Assembly (NCBI RefSeq): GCF_964355755.1
Contig: NC_092671.1
Span: 10,106,001-10,170,000 of the forward strand
DNA: 64,000 bases
Reading direction: 5' to 3'
Source of the DNA: Antedon mediterranea
Taxonomy: Eukaryota > Animalia > Echinodermata
The notes under the pieces are model-generated. The model made no database searches and had not been told where the DNA came from. It saw only the letters and a program-made list of their open reading frames with translations. This document shows positions 50,401-64,000 of this stretch, piece after piece; within the stretch, counting starts at the first letter, position 1, and the number at the start of each line of letters is the position of its first letter. A program made the translations under genes and the position numbers.

Positions 50401-51498
50401 CTAGAAATACGCAATGATCTAAGAAAACCGTTGCAACAGTTATCCCCGTGTAACCCTTTGCAAAGAATTACCGAGTTAGTATAAAATATATTATGTATGT
50501 GGATGGAATATCCACTTACTTTATAATTAGGACTTTTTTTGCTATAATAATGATTATGAAAATTCCACTTTATAATATTGACTGATCGTTACTTGTAAAC
50601 AAACATGTTATTTATTAACGTTGAAATGTTTTTTTTTTATGAATTTTTTTTAAACATTTGGTTGCGATTGTTTACTGCAAAATGTATGCAGCGAATACAT
50701 TATTTTAACTTAGATTCGCGAAAAAAAAAATGAATACGGAAGAATGAGATGTCGAAAGAAATGAGAGAGGGAGATGAGTGACTCCATTATGCCTCCGGAC
50801 ACGCTGCAACATCAGAATACCTTATTCAGTTTATACTGAAATCTGCACTGTAAACCATTTCCTTATTATGTTATATACATTTCCTTCAAGCCTAAAGTAT
50901 GTCTATATTCATTAACATTTTACCTCTGAAAAAACACTGAACGTCATTTTCGGTTTTCCTTCAATAGAGACGAGCTCAAAATGTTTTGAGAATATTGAAT
51001 AACCATTATAAGTGGTGTTGTCAAACAACTTAGCCTTTCTCTTTCTTATGGTGCAACGCTCTATAAATGTAGGCCTAGTTAAGATGGTTTGGGTCTGAGC
51101 AACTGAATTTCAGAAAACAAGATTTTTTTTTCTGTTTCTAATGCAACATGTCAATAAAAGGTTGACATCTTTAATACAACTTTGCCCGTAATACATTTGT
51201 AAGGCAAAGGATAATAACTTATCAATTCGTTTACGATCTTAAACGCGCAGATACTACGAATAATAATGTATAAGATAATGAAATTCATGCATCAATAATC
51301 ATTAATACTATCACTGCTTCATCCTCCTAGTTATACTAAGCAACATTTTCATTCAACATTGATGACGTATGCAGAAGAACAGCAGTTCATTCTATAACCC
51401 GAGTTTTATATTATAAATAAAAGGAAAAACATTATAATTACCTGAGTTCCAACCTGATTTCCACATTGTCCTATCTGCAGATGAATAATCTCGCCCAT
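47413..51498 (-). CDS. TUBB: Divergent beta-tubulin (442 aa, 2 coding exons)
   Basis: Exon 1 51498-51442 ([19 protein letters not shown]), with an intron after codon 19 as usual for beta-tubulins. Exon 2 48684-47413 contains [29 protein letters not shown] and the beta-type LRKLAVN. The frame is intact. Confidence 0.95.
49886..50016. mobile_element. Short Tc1/pogo-like MITE (CAGT...ACTG) interrupted by a 23-bp palindrome
   Basis: TACAGTGAAACCTC...GGGACAC...GTGTCCC...AATAGGGG. Related fragments lie near 4190-4350, 24925-25045 and 30720-30770. Confidence 0.45.
49944..49966. mobile_element. TIR-only palindrome with perfect 7-bp TSD, probable excision footprint
   Basis: CATAGAGGTATTATACCTCCATG flanked by ATTGGGT on both sides. 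Confidence 0.7.
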
Positions 51499-52942
51499 GT
51501 TAAGTTTGCTCTGGTCTGCATAAGATGTATACACAGACGTTTACAATCGGTGTTAGCGCGTAAATTATTGTTTTTGACGGAGGTAGTATGCGCACGCATC
51601 TAATGATAGGGAACTCGATGTTGATTCGTTGAGCAGTGTAATAAGTATGGGGTTCCGACATGTTGTAGGGGTTCGAAAATCACCACGCTTATAATACAAA
51701 CATGTTCATATGATTTTGATTATGCAATAGTGTTACCGAACGATATCTTGTTCTTCTTTAGATAATTAAATTCGCCAAGTAGGCATTTTTTACTGAATTC
51801 TTGATAACTTTCGGAATGTCGGAATTTTGACTTTTGATAATAATTGATACATCGTGAAAAAAGTAGGGTCTTCGTACCTTTATCATTGTTCAACACACAA
51901 TAAACAAATGTGTGAAGTCTGGCAGTAAATGTAATGTCATATATCCCAGCCATATGTATAGCATTGCTTAATAGATATACAGCATTTTGTACAGGTCAAC
52001 ATGATATTAAATTTACATAAATCATAACTCTACAATTGATTACACTATGCATAATACATACACTAGTTCAGCATCGACGCTTTTTGTAAAATATCGATGT
52101 TTGCCCGACAGTGTAACTATTGAAATAAATAAAATGTACACGTTAAAAGCAGATTGATGCCTTACTGCATTTTAGCAATACAGAATACAGTAGATCAAAG
52201 GCTATTAATTCTACTCTTATTAGCAAGAAACAAATATGAAACCGTTTTGTTAGCAATATATGTCAATTAATCAAACATTATGCTAAATATTTACAATTTT
52301 ATTGTATTCTTCAATAGTATATTATGATTAACATTAATTAATTAATTTCCAATATATCACCGGGCGGTTTAGATTTTCTCTATGCCTGTAAACTTACAGT
52401 ATACAGTATAATCATATTTTCATAATTTAGGTAGGTTAGAGCAAAACCAGATTGGAGCATTGGTACTAATATTGTCATTAAAATGTCAAATATAGTGATG
52501 GTTATAAAGTGCTAGACTACTTTAGATTTTAAATGTTTGTCAGTGCAAACTATTATTAATATTGTAAAATAATTAACATTTTGTTTAGTTTAAAAATAAT
52601 AGTAATACTTACGTAATTGTGGGCCTCAGTACGCGTTCGACAAGGCCAATGGGGGTTTCTCCTTTATGTTCACTGACATAAAGGTTGTCGAGGAACATTG
52701 TGAATTAAAACGGTAATATGCCTACCTGCATTACACTGGTTAGGAAGACATTGACATCATAAAAACACATTTTAAAACTAATTATTAACTCAATGAATTC
52801 TCAATTGCATTAACCTAATTTTATTAAGTGATTAACTATTATATTACATTAAAAAAAAAATTGATAATCAAACAATACAAGATTTCATTTGATTTGCGTG
52901 TTTGATCGAGAAGACGCGCGAGGAAGCGACGTACCGTTACTT

Positions 52943-53090
52943 AACTTTGTTCCCACTAGGACGTAACGCAACGACGTAAGCAATTTAACCAATCACAAGC
53001 AATAGATTATCCGATTTTTTGCTTGTGATTGGTCAACATGCTTGCGTTGCGCTTACGTCCTTGCGTTGCGTCCTAGTGGGAACCAAGATT
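52943..53090. mobile_element. Palindromic MITE (about 150 bp)
   Basis: Long inverted repeat TTCCCACTAGGACG(T/C)AACGCAA...ACCAATCACAAGC / GCTTGTGATTGGT...CGTCCTAGTGGGAA. Confidence 0.8.
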
Positions 53091-53448
53091 TAGATGAACG
53101 TTAACGTTTTGAAAATCCTTCCTTCAAGAGCCGTTTAATATTATATCACTCAACAGCACGGGCTATAAAAAAAAACAATTTTTATCAATATTTATATATA
53201 TTACAATTATATTTCATAATAAACATGATATACTAATGAGGACGAAGGCCCTCCGTTGATCCTAACCCTTAACCTTAGTAGGGAGCTCAGGCACGCGGAG
53301 GATTTATCGAAAGTGAGTGAAGTTATCTGGCCTATTATTGTCCTGCTATTTCAAACAATATGTGAAAATAATCCTGACATCTATTGGTTTGTCTTATATA
53401 TTACAATGTTTGTATGCTTCTGCATAGCATAACAGTGTTTGTATACAC

Positions 53449-56400
53449 CTAAGGACAACGTCCAGTCGACATAGAGACGGTGTTCGAAACTGGTCCCCAT
53501 CCTTTACTCGTCCGCCCCTTCATCTTAAAGTAATACCTAGTGCTGCTAACCAATCCATGTATCGTACGTGTCAAGTCACCTCCGTCGGCTACCTCAACAA
53601 CCCAATCGCTGTCACCAAGGTCAGAGTTGATGCTGTACATTATCATGTATGCTGCAACAAATTTATGCGAAAATGCCTTTTTTAAAGTGATGTGGAAATG
53701 TTAACACTCGTTCTTTACTAATGCCACGGTCTTGTCTTACCAGTGGCTTAAAACAGTGCTCTATCTGACGTATTCAGAAACAACCTCATTTTCAAAGGTG
53801 CACTTTGTTGATATTTTTAGTTTACCGTTATTATATAATTTTCCATTTTGCATATTTTCGCAATTATAAAATCATCAGATAAGTAAGATAAACTTAATGT
53901 AAAACACATAAAGCTCAAAATGCACACAAACACGTATGGAACATTAGGTCTACATTGGACGATATCCTTTCTGTCTGTCCCTCTATTATCATCATATTAT
54001 TATTACCCCTACTTACCATTAATAATGCCGTTTGGCTTGGCAGGTGGAAGCCAATTCACAATAATGGCTCCGCAACTGTATTCAGATAAAACTAACGTTG
54101 GATCACTTGGCGGGGAACTTGGAGCTGAAACGAATATAAACAACAGTATAAAAAACTTATTTTCATCATCATCGTCATCATCATCGTCATCATCATCATC
54201 ATCGTTCTCATCATCATCATCGTCCTCATCATCATCATCGTCATCATCATCGTCATCATCATAATCTTCATCATCGTCCTCCCTATCGTTCTCATCATCA
54301 TCATCGTCCTCCTCATCATCATCGTCCTCCTCATCATCATCGCCATCGTCATCATCATCATCATCATCATCATCGTCCTCCTCCTCATCATCATCGTCCT
54401 CCTCATCATCATCGCCATCATCATCATCATCATCATCGTCCTCCTCATCATCATCGTCCTCCTCATCATCATCATCGTCCTCCTCATCATCATCGCCATC
54501 ATCATCATCGCCATCATCATCATCATCGTCCTCATCGTCATCGTCATCATCATAATCTTCATCATCGTCCTCCCTATCGTTCTCATCATCATCGTCCTCC
54601 TCATCATCATCGCCATCATCATCATCATCATCTTCGTCCTCATATTTCTCTCAAATATTTAAATATTTCACTTAGATGAGAGAATTTATTAAAGTTTTAA
54701 GTAGAAGTGTTTGCCTTTATATAAGTGTGATTGGTGAACACGGTCACTGGTCAAATTGAACATTTATATTGGTATACATACCATCTTCAAACGTTTTGTT
54801 AAAAGACACAATGCTGTAGCGACTTGAACCCTCGATTGTTGTTCTTTTAACACTCACTTCGTACACTGTATATGGCTTTAAGTTTGTCAAAGTTAACGTG
54901 GTTTCAGTTGTATTTATTAATCTAAACAAATAAACACATGTCAGAGAATGATGGTAATTAATAATTTTAATCACATCGTAATTGTACGACACCGGCTTCA
55001 CATTCATTTAAACTAGACAAAAAGTAGTGAGCCCTCTAGCGGTCATTTGTGATTTCTGAGATTCATCGAAGCGCGACAACATCACCCGGAAATGATGTGA
55101 ATTTAAAATTTTAATAGGGTTAAACTCTTTTAACCAATTGAAAGCCTTAAATTATAGTTCCTTATGAATAATTCATGAGAATAATTAAAGCAAGGGTTGA
55201 AGAAGCACGTGACTTGGTTTTTGGAACAGGATAGCAGTTATGATCGTGTCAGGTAATCATTGAATTTGCCCTTCTTTTTGTTAGATTTTATACGATTTTT
55301 ATCAATAATAATATTGTACATTTTTTCGAGACCATAAAAAAATTCCTCAATTTTTGAGTAAACGAGTGACTAAATAAAAAGTTACTATGTAATGTAAATA
55401 TTCGTTTGACAAAAAATGGGCATGTTGATATTTTCAGGTATTTTTTAAATGGCGATTGAAATAGGTAAACAAATCACATGTATAACGGTGGTTTGTGCGA
55501 AGCTGGGCCTAGCCTTGATGGTCCAACGCGTACTGCGTGTTAATCAATGCGTATAAGATACACACGTAGTCGTTTAGGCCAATTTTTTTACATGTTTATT
55601 TATTAATATTAGGCCCCATTCTCATTTATTTTAATTAATGTACTGAATGTACCAAACTTTACAACTCTATATAAATTAGATTTTGTACTTGTATTAAATT
55701 CAAACGTTTTATGGGATTTAAAACATTAAGCTAGGCCTTGTAGTAGGCCTAGGACCACATGCTAGGTTTTTCAGCCTAATTTATCATGCAGTATACCTCT
55801 AGCCCATCTTTCAAATACATATTTAAATTAACATACTTTTTATATTTCTATATTTTTTATAGGATCTGACTCCAGAAAACATTTGCATCACTTGAAAGCG
55901 GCTATTTATGGACAGCATGTTGACATTCAAAAAAATTTGACCAGCTCTTATTAATTAAATGTCTTTTAAATTAAAGGTTTTCATTATAATGAAATGTACG
56001 GTGACAGAAATTTAAATGATTCTCATAATTGAGGTTTCTCATAGATTTAATATTGAAGGTAAATAAATAAAGCTGTTTGTTATTCTTGCCTTTAGAAATA
56101 AACTTGTTGTTAGTACTATATTATTAGGCCTAGGCCATTATACAAATTAAAACTAAAAAATACAGTAATCATATTTAAGGCCTACACAGCAGTACCTTGC
56201 TTGATTTGATTTTTTTCAAATATTTAATTGATGAAATAAATGAGTTTGACTTTTCAATTAGTTGCCATTTTATTAGTTTCTGTGTGTTTTTATTTATATT
56301 CTTAAAATAATTGTATTGTATACAACAACTTTAAAGTATTGCGCAGAAGTGATCAAATTATAGTAGGCCTATTTTTATGTTATTTTCGCTTAAAATTATG

Positions 56401-59400
56401 CAGTTAAAGTATTGATTTTAAGGTGACAGAAACGGTTAGGCAAGAAAAGAAATAAATTTGGGAATTTTGTTATGCGGTAAAAACAATTAAACATAATTTA
56501 CCCCTAATGCATGTAAATGTAGAAAACATTGCTTATGTTAGCGCGACCGAAACTCGCTACAGGCTCAGGCTCACTATACCAACACGAATATGAAAAACCA
56601 ATGTCGCCTATATTTACTGTGTTATATATTTAAAACTATGGACAAAAAGTGTGATTTAAAGCGTTATGACGGTACAGGAAACGTTATTCTTTGTATTGGC
56701 CAAGTTTCATTTTGAAAATCCTTGCCCTTAAAAAATAATGTCACTTTAAACTTCATGATATGACACAAAACCGCCTGTCGCCGGCCAATTTCATAATATT
56801 CACTAGTGTAAAAATTAAATATAATCCCATTTATCATTGTAAATACTGTATATTTTGGAGCCTTACCTATACGTTTAATGCATGTAAGTGAAATTTTGAC
56901 AAAAAATGAGTTTTATTTAAAAAAATTCTTCAATTAAATATGTCGCACAAATGACGTAACTTACGTTACAGACTTTAAAAAATGCATTAAATATCAATTA
57001 ATAATTACCTATAAAAGTGTTTTTCTTCGTATTATATGTGATTTGTACTCTTGATAAGGATTATATTGCTTGCACGGATGAAATATAATGTAAATACGTT
57101 ATAAAATTGCCTGGAAAGTGTTAATGAAAAACGATTGGTTAAGCGATGTAACCTACGTTACCCCATTTCTTCTTAGGATCCGGTTTGTGTACACACATGT
57201 TATAATAATTTATAAGATTAGTTACGTCAAGTTTAATTTTAAACTGATTATTTTGTTGTTGTTTTAAGATTTAATTATTTGAGCCTTTGAAGTTCATTTG
57301 AAATTTACGTTATGGTAACTTACGTTACCATATATATTGTTACTGATGAGTTTTAATATTGTGGACATTTCTAAGGAATACAGATATTCTTATGATCAAG
57401 AAAACGCCCTCTGATACAATAAAAAGTTTTAACCACGTGATTCGGCAGACAGCGGCAATTTTGACCACGTTTTTATAAATACTTCTTCACAATTTCATAG
57501 TTTATTCGTCATATATCAGATTTTCGAGTATATTTTAGTAAGTATTCAAATGCTTAATTCACTAAAGATCATTTAGAACAACTTTCCTAATGTTTATAAT
57601 TTAGGAAATTAGACAGATATGCAAGTATGTTATTACATTGTACAATTTACACTAGTAAGCTAGCACAGGCAACAACGTAACGTAAATTACACTACATGTA
57701 ACGTAGGTTACCATTTTATATACCTCATTTCTAAGACGTCTTGTTTTTTTTCTAATCAGTATATTCAAATAATTTAAGTTATATTATACAGGCAATAATG
57801 AACATTACCTCCAACCGGAGTTGATTTTATTTATGGTTATTTTATGGGAAGTTTCTTTGCCCTTGATACTATGGTAACGTAAGTTTCACATTGATGTTGT
57901 ATGTCTATGTTGTTGTAACATTACCGAACATAGCAATGATATTAAGATAATATCTGTGTATATATGTTTATGAATATTCATTGTCAAACGTATGTCATGT
58001 ACCTGGATACATCTTGTTTCATTGTAATATCGATACTCACAAGTATTAATAGTAAGTTCATGGTAACGTAAGTTACATAATTTACTACATACAAAGTCAA
58101 TGTATTTTTTTACATTATGGTTATTTAAAATGTAAAAATATAGTTTAATATTTGTTTATTTCGATTTAATACTAATACATTTTGTTAAACACTAGGTGAC
58201 ACTGGTGATAATGGTAAAGTCACGAGCCGAGATTCAGGCAGCGTATCGGGAACGACAAAAAGAGAAGCGAGGAGCAGAGTACTTGCAAGCAGAAGCAAGA
58301 CGTGTAATGAAATACTTTGTTCCGTCAGCAGAACTTACAACAAAAGATAGAAATGCACGGACAGCGACGGTGAAAAGAAGAGTACAGAAACATTGAAGGT
58401 ACGTGAAGCAAGTTCAAGCCCAACTACAAGTACAACACCCAGAAGAAGCTGACGAACCTAGTAGTAGTAATGATGATTCAGCCATATCTTCCGATGTGGT
58501 TTCACCAACTTCTCCTCTACGCATCAAGATGTCGTTTAAGAGACGTATTTCTACTCGAAAACGTGTTGGCAGAGCACTAAGTCGAGCCCATCGTCGCATC
58601 GAAAAATTAAATCTGGAGTTACAGAAAATGACCATACAAAAAAAAACCATAAACAAGCGCTATGAAAGAGCTTTGAAGAAAGTAAATAAGAATTGCATCC
58701 CATCTACCAGTCATGACTCGTCCATGAGTAGTACTGACTCTCCAAGATCGAAAGCAAATCAGGATTTACGAAATGCAGGTAGGTCACGAATGAATGTACT
58801 GTTTTATTCACGCATAATTATTATTAATAATGATAATATTGGCTATTTATAATATAGAGCAAATATCCACAAAATGTACTCAATGCCTTATAATTGATAA
58901 CTTGTTCCATGTCGTGTATGGTGATGTGAATATACGTATTTTCTTTTTCTGCCCATTACATGCCGCTTAAACCATTATCTTCCTGAACATATCAATTGAG
59001 ATAATATTTAAATATTCTAAACCATACTTAATTTAGTATTGATGTAATTTCCAATTTTCTAGGTATGTCACCAAGATCAGTACCCAAAGGGTTGAAAAAA
59101 CAACTCCTGCTTTCACATGCACTGCTCGATGAAATAAGAGAGAGCACAGAGATAAATCAAGGGCAGAAGGCCAGAAGAATGATTAGCAATGTTCTATCTG
59201 GAAAGATAATCAAGAAATACAGGTTAATCGCGCGTGTTTCAAGGGAGTCGGGCCTTGGTCAACGTAACCTATCCAAGACGAAAAAGCAAGGAATCACAGC
59301 TGCGAAGTATGTAAAAAAGGCGTGGGGAGTTCTTCATAATGAAGTATTAGGCTTCATGGAAAGAGATGACAACTCCAGGATGATGCCAGGAAAACGAGAT

Positions 59401-62400
59401 GCCTGCAAAACATCTTCTACCAAAGAAAAACGCCAGATAAGATACCTCAATGATTACATGATGAACTTGTTTGCCAAGTACAAAAGTGAAAATCCCGAGC
59501 AACGGAAGGTTTCTTTTTCCTCGTTTAAGAAAATCCGACAAAGAAATGCTAATATTAAACTTGTCAAATTCACAGCAAGAAACACAAGTCTTTGCCAAAA
59601 ACATCAGAACTTTGCCCTTAAAAGTTAAACGTATTAAAATCTCTAGGTGTGATCACAATCACAAGCCCCGATGAAGCAATCAAATCAATTAATTGAAACA
59701 TTAAAGGAAATGTAACTTACGTTACTAAGAAAGTTGAGACTGATATAAGCATTAGGCCAAGCAACTGTAAAGTTCACAGAATTATAATAAATAATAATAA
59801 TCATATTAACCAAAACAATAGTATGTACACTAGCATTATAAAACTCACTAATTTACATTTTCATATGGGAGTTTTTATGAATAAATATATATTATACATA
59901 TAAAATATGCATTGAATTAATAGAAAATAAAAAAAGGATGATTTAATGAAACATATAATCTGTTTGCCTTCTCTAAAGTGATGGCAATGATCTAAAATAC
60001 CAATGAGGTTTATTGTTAAAAGTTACAAATGTTGTTTTTATTTAACTATTTTGATGACGAATTCATCTTTCAATTCAGTAATTTACGTTACTGAATACGT
60101 AATTTACGTTACTCAATTGTAACACAGTATACATTTTCTAAGAAAGATAACACCAGTTTTGTCATATGACTATTTAATAGAGTACAGTAATGAGTGTTAT
60201 TTTATGTGAATTTAAGACAGGAATGTATGCGGACATACAAGAAATCAACAACAACCTTTGATTGACGACTCATGTTATTATGGATGTTAATAAAGTATAA
60301 ACTATAAAATACAATATGTATTAGTGAATGTAACAATATGTAAGTTATTATACATGTTTTTGTTTGATTACATACACTATTTTATAGTTTCATATTCATA
60401 GAAATATAATATTGTTGCCTTTATAATCGTTTACATTGAAAGTCGAAAATAAAACATGTAACGTAGGTTACAACCACGATTCCAGTTGCGATCATTCATT
60501 TTGTTGACAATTTTACATTGATAAATATTATGTGAGGAAAATAACAGAGAAGTAAATATAGATGTTGCACTTTAGTTTAGTAACAATTATAAAATGTTTC
60601 GTCAACATTTGTTTTTGAGAATTTTCATTTCCTAATGTTGCTAATATACTGAGCCCGAGCCTACAGGGAATAGAGCCTGCAAAAGCGACGCGTACACACC
60701 TACTCGGGCACCGGCGGAGCGCGATCGATAGTAAATATACCCGATTTCAAATGATCATAAAATTCTTTTAAAAAATATCAACATTTTGATTTTTTGAGGA
60801 TTAAAAGTAAAGATATTGAAATTTAACATAATATTTACAAATATGTATTTAAAAATTCGGAAACAATTTTAGCGTGATATTAAAACAAACTTTTTAGAGT
60901 TCCGCGATTTTCTACGCAGGATTTGTTTGTTTTCATTGTTAATGGGCGAATGTTACCTAAACTAGAATCGTTATAAATCTTTTAAATTTGTATTATAAGT
61001 AATTTCTGTAGTATTCTTAGTAACATCGAATGTCTCTAATTAACTAGCAGTTATTTATACTAACTATTGTTCAATAATAAGCGTGTATGAAGTGAAAATC
61101 TATAGTAATAATGTTCTTAGTCAGTTCGTCTCGCTCGCGTGAAGTCTTCGGGTTTCTCAATACAATTCTCAGCGGTAAAGATAGGCTCGCGCTAATGTTT
61201 AAATCAAAAGCGCTCTCAAAACACTTTTTGTCCAAAATTCGCAATATGACGTGAGTGTGGCTTCGCAACGTATGGTGCAATTGGCGTGTGTGGCCTGGCC
61301 GCATCGTCCTACACACTTAATTAGACATACTAAAAACAAATAGTTTGGTTTCTTTTCCTGTTGTGTTGGGTTGGGGACTGAGATTACATGCATCGTGGGG
61401 TCAACTACTTTTTAAATTTGAATATGATACCTATATCTATATTGAGAATGACATCTATGTATGGGACTCAACAAAGTTTCAACATAATAGAGGTGTCCCG
61501 TGTGTTTCTGTAGTAAAAACATTAATTCCTCCTCGTTGGTTTTACGGGAAATTGTCCCAAAGCATGTCCAAAAGGAGAGGTTTTACTGTAATTCTCTATC
61601 GAGGCTTTCCAGTCATTCATCGTAATGTCATTAATGATAATCTTAAACAATTTTAGAAACATTATAGTTATAATTCGCAAAGAGTTTAATGTACGAAGTA
61701 AGTGGCCATTTGGAATTATTACACTTTCTGTATAATGGACGTATGTCTAGATTATATATAATATTTCAAAATGCATCTTTTTTTTTAAATATTGGATTTC
61801 TAACGAAAGCGAAACAACTCACGAACTTACTTCACATTCAGAGGATAAGATGGTGTATATCTAACTGTATACATCACTTTACCGTCAGCCCCATCGGGTG
61901 CCATAAAGGCCACAATCATCGTTGTTGGGCCTGTGGTCTGGAGTTTCACGGCGAATGGTGGGTCAAGTGGTCTACTATCAACTAATAAAATAAAATATAT
62001 GAAAGATAAAAATACGATAAGCTATAACAACTATTGATTAGTTGTTGACTTGTTAAACTTTTTTAAAGCGCCACCAGCGGCGAATAACTCAAGCAAAGTT
62101 TCATGTCCAGATCTTTTACGAACATTGGATCATCAACAAGAAACTTTTACCAAATCAAGAAAAGTCTTCAATATAAATATAAATACCTGTATCAGTATCT
62201 GGTATCTCAACAATTTTATACACAGGTGCGCCCTCTCCAGCTTGGTTGAACGCTCTCAACTTGATGACGTAACTCGCGGATGGTCTCACATTAACATAAG
62301 TATACGATAACTTGTTGCTGTCCAATTCTTTGATAACGACGTCAGGAAGATTCTTGCCAATACCAAGTATATATCCACGTACTATAGTGCCTTGCTCGCT

Positions 62401-64000
62401 ATCTGGAGGTTCCCACATGATGTGTATGGCGTCTGATCGTGGGATAACCGTCAAAGATTCCACTTGAGGAGGTACTCGTGATTCGTCTACGAAATATATT
62501 ATTATATACCGTTGATTTTTATCAAGAATTTTTGTTATTGTCACCTTTGTAAGTAACAAGTTTGTAAGTCTAATACAAGTGTTCTACCTACCTTATCATA
62601 GTAGACCATTGGACAAAAAGAATTAAAACCATTGATAGCTTCTTAAACAAATATAACTTGTAAATCAGAGTTTATAATTAGGCTAATTATTAACATCATT
62701 TCACATGGCAGTATATAAAAAAAACTTGGGTAATCAAAAGCAAAAGATGAATTACGTCTTACCTGGCACTCTTGTCACTTCTAGTTTTGCTCTGGCAAAC
62801 TCGGGTCGAAAACTCGTGTCCATCGGACTATTTATCTCACAGATGTAAGTAGAAGAATCATCCTTGTTAACGTTATTAATTGTCAAAATTTCACCACCCT
62901 CGCTCAACAAATATTTATCATTTGGTACAATGTCATATTTCAGTTTCTTCCATTTTATCTCCGGTTTAGGAACACCGTCTGCGCGGCATCTAAGAGTGAC
63001 GTCATTCCCCTCTGTCGTTTCAATGTCTTCTGGTTTTTCAATGAATGTCGGTGGAACTAGAACGGTTAATACAGCATCTGCTGTTATGCGACCTGCCCAA
63101 TTCTCTGCAACACACGTGTAGGTCCCGGCGTCTTCTTTCACTGTACTGCTGATAAAGAATACGCCTTCCATTAGAGTTTCCAGAAGACGTCCTTCTATGA
63201 CTGCCGCCACTGAACTATTGCCATCTATAAGGAAAATGGGAACAATCCATGTTGATATACAAATTGGGGAATTCTCTCTGTAAAAACCTATGTAATTTAA
63301 ACAAATCACAATGACAAATACACAGTTTCAGCAATAACAATTTGCATTACCTTTCAACCACGAAATAACAGGTTTTGGATATCCATAAACCGAACACACC
63401 AAGAACGACGGACTGCCAGATTGTGCGGAAGCATTCCTCGGTTTAGACAGGAACTCTGGTGCCTCTAACAAAACATAAATTCATTGTTGGTATCGTGAAA
63501 TAACGCGTTAAAACTAAAATTATACAGCCCTATTGTAACCAACATTTCTCTAATTCACATAACTAAGGCGATCGCCCTTCAAATTTCTTCTAATCAAAAA
63601 ATTGAAATAATATTAAAAATTAGATTGAGAATGAATAATAACTTAACTAATTCATATTTTTATTTAAAAAAACACACAATTATATTATTATCACACTAAT
63701 TTCTGAATGACAATAGCATACTCTTTGTAATCTCGTGGTGTTGGTATGAAACGTTTTCCGGTAACTCAAACTGATAGTGAACCAAAAAGTGACCAGACAC
63801 CGTACTTGGTCCTGTATAAAACACATTGAGTTGCTGCTGTGTTGACGTGACAATCAATGGTAGATCTAAACCATCCCGACTGGAGATAGAAGCCATTTTC
63901 CTTGTCTTTTGGTCTCTATCAGTAAACGTCTGAAATACCATCGATTCACGAATCAAAAACTTTGTTGGCACGGACTCGTTATTGGTCTCTGGTAAGAAGT
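53449..64000 (-). CDS. DCC/neogenin-related Ig/FN3 protein, 3' part (CUB-like, 2 Ig, 3 FN3, no transmembrane segment); 5' end beyond the right edge
   Basis: Phase-consistent exons: >=64000-63722, 63464-63351, 63224-62763, 62486-62187, 61981-61831, 54921-54782, 54124-54017, 53651-53449 (TAG). The Ig junction LTVLVPP and the FN3 motifs ESRVPPQ...IVRGYILG...YVIKLRAFNQAGEG, LKPYTVYEVSV, APSSPPSD...IVNWLPPAKPNG and YYFKMKGRTSKGWGP resemble DCC Ig3-Ig4 and FN4-FN6. Confidence 0.88.
54163..54643. repeat. Compound (CAT/CGT/CCT)n trinucleotide microsatellite with higher-order duplication
   Basis: About 480 bp of CAT-based triplets. The block ATAATCTTCATCATCGTCCTCCCTATCGTTCTC occurs twice. Confidence 0.95.
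56562..60661 (+). mobile_element. Decayed DNA transposon (Sola2-like), internal deletion derivative
   Basis: Imperfect TIR GGCTC(A/G)GGCTCA(C/G)TATA, 4-bp flanking TACA on both sides, about 10 copies of a quasi-palindromic GTAACNTANGTTAC motif, and a transposase-like remnant inside. The superfamily call rests on recalled motifs only. Confidence 0.6.
58211..59690 (+). pseudogene. Transposase N-terminal half, pseudogenised
   Basis: MVKSRAEIQAAYRERQK..., premature TGA at 58394-58396, intron 58779-59062 (GCAG|gtaggt...ttctag|GT), then RDDNSRMMPGKRD...KRQIRYLND...SFSSF...LCQKHQNFALK. A frameshift follows and the frame is truncated before any catalytic DDE/D core. Confidence 0.65.

Follow-up and report, generated by a model that had tools for sequence, protein, structure and literature searches.

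A neogenin-like gene at the end of the window

We analyzed a 64,000-nucleotide (nt) stretch of the Antedon mediterranea genome (NCBI RefSeq assembly GCF_964355755.1, contig NC_092671.1, positions 10,106,001 to 10,170,000; hereafter the window). At its far end lies a minus-strand gene that encodes a neogenin-like protein, a likely secreted paralog of the DCC/neogenin receptors and a candidate netrin binder. The eight exons in the window join to a single frame of 584 amino acids (aa) whose only stop is the terminal TAG. All exons have GT donors and AG acceptors, and the intron phases are 1, 1, 1, 1, 2, 1 and 1 (Table 1). The frame is letter-identical to the last 584 aa of an 847-aa database protein, P0001, whose N-terminal 263 aa are encoded beyond the window. 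When we searched the exons singly with Pfam, exons 2 and 3 gave Ig domains and exons 4 and 6 gave fn3; exon 8 also gave fn3, at a score under the curated cut-off. Exons 5 and 7 had no FN-like match, and exon 1 had no match at all. P0001 as a whole has a signal-like start followed by two putative FN3 copies (FN5' and FN6'), a CUB-type domain, two Ig domains, FN4, FN5, FN6 and the stop. A sequence-only reading of this DNA had given the order CUB-Ig-Ig-FN4-FN5-FN6, which is right as far as the window lets one see and incomplete at the front, where the signal-like peptide and the degenerate FN5-FN6 pair come in addition.

Table 1. Coding exons of the neogenin-like gene and the start of its 3' untranslated region (UTR), in window coordinates
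Feature	Position	Strand	Content
Exon 1	window edge/63998-63722 (63722..64000), runs off edge	-	CUB-type domain, C-terminal two-thirds; P0001 residues 264-355
Exon 2	63464-63351	-	Ig domain A (Ig3-like), first half
Exon 3	63224-62763	-	Remainder of Ig domain A, followed by Ig domain B (weakly assigned as Ig4-like)
Exon 4	62486-62187	-	Neogenin/DCC-type FN4; has V621 and G633, which correspond to DCC V793 and G805
Exon 5	61981-61831	-	Short FN4-FN5 linker and first half of diverged FN5
Exon 6	54921-54782	-	FN5, second half
Exon 7	54124-54017	-	FN6, first part, with Cys762
Exon 8, last coding	53651-53449	-	Remainder of FN6, Cys846, TAG stop 53451-53449
3' UTR start	53448-53167	-	Unspliced in the contig carrying the exon 7-8 joint

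The gene is spliced as predicted and ends at the TAG

Five sequencing runs cover the stretch, three of which we aligned to it, and none is recorded as RNA; we took one of them, X1, as RNA, a guess supported by the spliced joints of its contigs and by its zero depth in an intron bin (61332-61715) that the DNA runs do cover. There are 10 joints in the X1 contigs, comprising 7/7 predicted introns at their exact coordinates with GT-AG ends and three joints within the repeat in intron 5, and the joints from the CUB exon through the last exon are all present. The X1 contig with the exon 7-8 joint continues without a gap to 53167, 282 nt beyond the TAG, and leaves unused the GT that lies immediately 3' of the stop. 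This contig differs from the window at one letter, whose position is not listed (eight rows are not shown); the letter should lie away from the stop, where a difference at a depth of 347 should be listed, although this is not proof. A second X1 contig (2,538 nt) extends 2,218 nt beyond exon 5 on the upstream side, where the P0001 model requires 1,942 nt of coding sequence, and so fits the model as far as length goes. Contig depth in X1 is 347 on exons 7-8 and 68 upstream, values that we do not read as a ranking of expression. The contigs of X2 and X5, which come from one sample that is possibly the assembly source, span the introns unspliced and differ from the window at 0 and 2 letters, respectively, over 53063-54154. 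The sequence-only reading had proposed eight phase-consistent exons ending in a stop, and the GT-AG ends, the single frame and the splicing in X1 bear this out; the read-through into the 3' UTR, together with the same C-terminus in a second species (below), indicates that the stop is real.

In or beside the 3' UTR there is a short repeat (52935-53093) that has inverted arms and, from a depth far above single copy, a very high copy number. X1 also covers the single-copy stretch 52500-52883, which hints at a longer 3' UTR. In intron 6, a GAT/GAG-type triplet repeat (54155-54646) occupies most of the intron and yields spurious poly-Asp, poly-Ser and poly-His frames.

The protein has no recognizable membrane segment or cytoplasmic tail

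Scanning the minus strand from the stop down to 45.2 kb, we found no 19-residue stretch with a mean hydropathy of at least 2.2. The first exon of a beta-tubulin gene begins at 51498, 1,951 bases past the neogenin-like stop; the earlier claim that no hydrophobic exon precedes this gene holds. One hydrophobic frame further on (45122-44826) was rejected as a membrane exon, as it has no Pfam match and lies beyond the tubulin gene. When eight canonical stalk-membrane-tail regions were compared with the window by tblastn, the matches listed were of low complexity only.

The protein itself agrees with the scan. The hydropathy maximum, in P0001 or in its orthologue from the feather star Anneissia japonica (XP_033124237), is 1.92 and lies inside an FN3 domain; three canonical receptors reach 3.0-3.7 in their membrane segments. 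Neither protein has a hydrophobic C-terminal tail of the glycosylphosphatidylinositol type, and the Neogenin_C family (PF06583) was not found in either of them; it was found in the canonical A. japonica receptor XP_033096450. Both have two I-set domains, as compared to four Ig domains in DCC/neogenin receptors. At the other end of P0001, residues 1-19 are hydrophobic (mean 1.79) and resemble a signal peptide. Two cysteines of FN6, Cys762 and Cys846, are kept in the orthologue, and in the domain alignment Cys846 aligns with a cysteine just past FN6 in the canonical crinoid receptor (the Cys846 column of a global alignment was an end artefact and was discarded in favor of the domain alignment). 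The two may form a disulfide that closes the C-terminus, a pairing suggested by FN3 topology. The sequence-only reading had stated that anchor and tail are missing; hydropathy, the conserved stop and the lack of Neogenin_C all agree with this. The product is thus likely secreted, as judged from its sequence, and very probably comes from a functional gene that encodes no membrane segment.

The C-terminal FN3 domains correspond to FN4, FN5 and FN6 of neogenin

Residues 549-843 of P0001 match neogenin FN4-6 in a single unbroken alignment (E 1e-52) that runs through the FN4-FN5 linker without a gap. To place each domain we built position-specific profiles from 6-11 non-crinoid receptors per domain and dropped picks that fell on the wrong domain. 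The first C-terminal FN3 domain scores 94.6 bits on the FN4 profile (next best 34.5) and the third scores 97.8 bits on FN6 (next best 41.0). The middle domain scores 37.6 bits on FN5 (next best 25.7), as compared to 56.7 for the crinoid receptor's own FN5. No FN3 domain of P0001 scores as FN1-3. Identity to the canonical A. japonica receptor XP_033096450 is 46% in FN4, 31% in FN5 and 41% in FN6, and the columns conserved across the family are kept at 18/23 positions in FN4 and at 22/27 in FN6.

A fold of P0001 made with two sequences was unusable (mean predicted local distance difference test score, pLDDT, 31.9); a second fold, made with 15 sequences, has pLDDT <50 over residues 1-353 and is mostly confident over the Ig and FN4-6 part. 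Searching with the second fold in Foldseek, we found 37-38% identity to neogenin chains as compared to ≤24% for the other structures listed. The Foldseek rank was not taken as kinship, as the top entries are longer multi-domain ectodomains (Robo2, PTP-delta) at 19-24% identity. By their scores, FN4 and FN6 are clearly of neogenin type, and FN5 is more weakly assigned as neogenin-type but diverged. Both parts of the original proposal, that these domains are FN4, FN5 and FN6 of DCC/neogenin and that FN1-3 are absent, are upheld, FN5 being the weakest of the three.

The front of the protein has two Ig domains, a CUB-type domain and a putative second FN5-FN6 pair

The Ig domains had been assigned to Ig3-4, and here the evidence is divided. 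Tested singly, Ig A fits Ig3 (72.3) better than Ig4 (61.2), and Ig B gives a near tie (51.8 and 51.6), so that the single-domain scores are ambiguous. With a profile of the pair, six neogenin Ig3-4 stretches come out on top (78.6-92.1 bits; best other protein 70.2), which favors the assignment moderately; the crinoid receptor's own Ig domains are outside the best 25 stretches for this profile.

The CUB family of Pfam (PF00431) has no match in P0001 at E values up to 1. Our two folds of P0001 are unusable over this region; the CUB reading rests on an ESM Atlas model, in which residues 215-347 give a TM of 0.70 to a CUB domain with a feature score of 0.89 (a lead-level score) and 8/10 structure rows fall in clusters with CUB or CRF-BP families. 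The N-terminal cysteine pair of this domain (Cys218 and Cys243) is conserved and there is no second pair. The segment that the sequence-only reading had called CUB-like is accordingly borne out as a CUB-type fold by the Atlas model and the cysteine pair, without a Pfam match. A 35-residue match of the CUB exon in an unrelated 5,112-aa FN3-repeat protein was rejected as chance.

Residues 27-216 of P0001 are FN3-type. We compared a profile of this pair with 273 stretches taken from 71 proteins, including 12 neogenins, and the top seven stretches were neogenin FN5 or FN5-6, with scores of 39.9-16.1 bits for neogenin as compared to 12.0 for the best other protein. In a separate ranking of clusters for the pair, an IGDCC3 cluster came beneath a neogenin cluster. 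Counting this pair, P0001 has two FN5 copies and both are diverged (35.7 and 37.6 bits). The pair is likely a degenerate FN5'-FN6' copy, a reading that falls short of proof because the scores are low and because the target set was gathered by searches with the same protein.

A conserved second gene in two feather stars

Of 485 candidates in a search with exon 3, 13 proteins matched, including P0001 itself and XP_033124237 (P0003), a 781-aa protein from A. japonica that is present in RefSeq under an automatic name only ("neogenin-like"). It is 73% identical to P0001 overall and 64-86% identical per domain, has the same domain order from the first FN3 domain onward, and ends in the same four residues. 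Using FN4-6 of XP_033124237 against longer proteins (33 matches of 1,353 candidates), we found that A. japonica has a separate canonical neogenin, XP_033096450 (P0046; 1,931 aa), which is encoded on a contig of different length. This receptor is listed in seven isoforms and has both a membrane segment and Neogenin_C. Since A. japonica has both an intact orthologue with the same end and a separate full neogenin, the Antedon gene is a conserved second gene in two feather stars, not a broken receptor. The sequence-only reading had asked for a separate canonical locus to be sought in the genome at hand; such a locus is shown for A. japonica only.

In a 12-row tree of FN4-6, both secreted-type proteins join XP_033096450 with support of 90/95, which is below the bar for a firm branch. 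The tree left out the XP_033096450 insert, 3/11 non-crinoid receptors, other echinoderms and protogenin. Both branches are long, and the stem branch leading to the two is 1.32 changes per column. These data are consistent with a neogenin duplication at the level of crinoids or echinoderms, which they do not show. Among the 28 matches of a full-length search (best 7,993 candidates scored) there was no orthologue outside crinoids, and in a search of 1.84 billion representatives with the CUB exon there were two matches, of which the sole genuine one is the A. japonica orthologue; fast divergence could hide a non-crinoid orthologue.

Between FN4 and FN5 the canonical receptor XP_033096450 carries a thyroglobulin type-1 repeat (residues 821-867), in the place of the short linker of the neogenin-like protein. 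The site of this repeat, the FN4-FN5 linker, is the controller of netrin binding in DCC isoforms. The same receptor has a cysteine-rich stretch after its membrane segment.

FN4 is the predicted netrin contact

Ligand sites of the family are known from vertebrates. The LamN domain of netrin binds FN4 with high affinity and EGF3 binds FN5 (PMC8063088, PMC5563286), while RGM binds FN5-FN6 (PMC8063088). The LamN site is the strongest, UNC5 and draxin do not compete for it, and the EGF3 site is no longer bound when the FN4-FN5 linker is short (PMC10871540). One fibronectin domain of DCC is enough, in isolation, to trap netrin (PMC2715117), and the DCC substitutions V793G and G805E each abolish netrin binding (PMC8116049); we located these two positions through the primer context given in that paper.

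We compared four netrin positions named in the literature and found that the two in FN4 are kept (V621 and G633) and the two in FN5 are changed, one of which, H857, is in any case not conserved in invertebrates. The FN4-FN5 linker has the length of that in the neogenin construct of 7NDG, which makes both contacts between different molecules, so the short linker does not preclude use of FN5. FN5, where the second netrin site and a part of the RGM site are located, has diverged more than FN4 and FN6, so that a netrin decoy acting through FN4 is plausible; an RGM decoy, and RGM binding by the protein in general, have no support. The prediction that FN4 caps netrin follows from the kept FN4 domain, V621 and G633, and the rank of LamN-FN4 as the strongest site. 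That the protein is a likely secreted neogenin paralog that acts by binding netrin through FN4, with no signalling of its own, is a prediction from sequence to which we give an even chance.

A fuller scenario can be proposed. A neogenin duplication, possibly in the crinoid or echinoderm line, would have lost FN1-3, the membrane segment and the tail, and the duplicate would have gained the CUB domain and a second FN5-FN6 pair at its front, now degenerate. FN4 of the secreted protein would cap the LamN site of netrin and compete with the membrane receptor for the site that it needs to cluster, leaving the UNC5 site free. The CUB domain and the FN3 pair at the N-terminus would serve as the tether of this complex to the matrix or to a partner. 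Netrin would thereby be locally damped or repositioned; trapping and presenting netrin are both compatible with the sequence. A bolder reading, in which crinoids evolved a dedicated gene for a soluble netrin-receptor decoy, with FN4 on LamN, a free UNC5 site and a tether made of the CUB domain and the second FN5-FN6 pair, is rather unlikely.

Weighing netrin binding against other explanations

Several observations weigh against a secreted netrin binder. FN4 is 46% identical to the crinoid receptor's FN4 and has 5/23 conserved columns altered, and FN5 keeps only 13/23, has lost the conserved Trp and has Phe at the position of DCC V848. The equivalents of V793 and G805 are conserved in nearly all family members, and because they are near-invariant, retention of V621 and G633 may reflect the fold rather than binding. 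Identity between the two crinoid proteins is not concentrated on FN4 (71%, as compared to 86% in Ig A and 82% in FN6). The canonical receptor was seen in A. japonica only, and a single run from a single study supplies the evidence for splicing. Finally, the signal-like peptide was judged by hydropathy and is encoded outside the window, and the A. japonica model starts 71 residues later, without such a peptide. The lower conservation of FN4, the diverged FN5, the degenerate N-terminal FN5'-FN6' pair (best 39.9 bits) and the long stem branch would fit a secreted matrix or adhesion protein that is made of neogenin parts and no longer binds netrin, with a crinoid-specific structural or cell-attachment role. 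Against this, it is precisely FN4-6, the unit that binds ligands, that was kept, with its order and its ungapped FN4-FN5 linker, and FN4 and FN6 retain most conserved columns; we regard it as a rather unlikely explanation.

The protein could instead be mainly an RGM binder that modulates RGM-neogenin or BMP signalling through FN5-FN6, not netrin. This unit is the RGM-binding one (PMC8063088), it is the unit present twice, and FN6 is well conserved; yet both FN5 copies score well below the crinoid receptor's own FN5, and DCC binds RGMB about 1,000-fold more weakly than NEO1 does despite high similarity (PMC8063088), so that homology is no predictor of RGM binding. We consider this improbable. 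A membrane-tethered or receptor form is less probable still. The tether could be an N-terminal anchor that stays uncleaved or a disulfide between the last cysteine and a membrane partner, or a minor isoform could splice to a membrane exon. The GT directly after the stop would suit an alternative splice, contigs drop rare variants, and hydropathy was the only guide to the signal peptide; but the GT is left unspliced in the contig that carries the last joint, the DNA from the stop down to 45.2 kb contains no hydrophobic frame, the next gene starts 1,951 bases on, the orthologue has an identical end, and Cys846 has a likely partner, suggested by FN3 topology, in the equally conserved Cys762. The long branch, the degenerate N-terminal domains and a large polymorphic insertion in intron 5 could also point to a decaying duplicate (a transcribed pseudogene) or to a gene model that fuses separate genes. 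Against this, the frame is open across all exons, X1 contigs contain every joint between the CUB exon and the final one, and the A. japonica orthologue is intact, none of its domains falling outside 64-86% identity; decay or artefact is extremely unlikely.

Other features of the window

Intron 5 holds a 6,265-base insertion (54993-61259) that is polymorphic, since X2 and X5, DNA runs of a single sample, have contigs that skip it. It is multi-copy by depth, contains a nested 4,104-base piece (56556-60661) and has interrupted plus-strand frames (58196-59628) without a convincing Pfam match; we found no clear terminal inverted repeat at this insertion. The beta-tubulin gene downstream is divergent, with two minus-strand exons (51498-51442 and 48684-47413), the first of which starts with MGEI; the usual beta-tubulin start is MREI. 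Minus-strand exons at 17358-16405 and 10519-9650 resemble an F-box/leucine-rich repeat protein, and those at about 5900-1300 resemble a cytosolic aconitase/iron regulatory protein.

Comparison with known systems and significance

The neogenin-like protein resembles the DCC/neogenin/Frazzled/UNC-40 receptors in having FN4, FN5 and FN6 in order and the V793 and G805 equivalents and, less clearly, in an Ig pair that is nearest to Ig3-4 by its pair profile. It differs from them in lacking Ig1-2, FN1-3, the membrane segment and the Neogenin_C tail and in having a CUB domain and an extra N-terminal pair that is FN5'-FN6'-like. In its likely solubility and its lack of a signalling tail it is like an engineered netrin trap and like draxin, a secreted antagonist of netrin that is presumably unrelated to it in sequence. 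The engineered trap, DCC-5Fbn (PMC2715117), is a laboratory fragment (FN5), whereas here a separate gene is predicted to act through FN4 on LamN; draxin binds the EGF3 site of netrin (PMC10871540), whereas netrin binding here is predicted at the LamN site. DCC/neogenin receptors are defined by four Ig domains, six FN3 domains, a membrane helix and a P1-P3 tail (PMC10084454), and the neogenin-like protein has none of these four features. Protogenin, PUNC (IGDCC3) and Nope (IGDCC4) are likewise DCC-like proteins of Ig and FN3 domains; their FN3 domains number two or five and their binding partners are WFIKKN proteins (PMC10084454), and we set them apart by this description only. The truncated DCC isoform of PMC3995063 is described as being without the netrin-binding part. 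In sea urchins, netrin, Unc-5 and unstudied DCC homologues are reported (PMC7555569).

Among the literature matches listed, which included few subscription papers and no supplements, we found neither this protein nor any naturally occurring secreted paralog of DCC/neogenin described. Fragments of DCC serve as netrin traps in the laboratory, and a natural gene for a secreted DCC/neogenin ligand-binding module was not found in the literature searched. The weight of the finding is limited by its narrow known range of two crinoids. It represents domain shuffling in a guidance receptor whose architecture is called conserved across animals (PMC10084454). If the protein binds netrin, it would offer a natural test of whether LamN occupancy alone shifts the balance between DCC/neogenin and UNC5 signalling, and if it is a soluble decoy, it could switch netrin from attraction to repulsion or fix netrin in place, for example in the nerves of regenerating arms.

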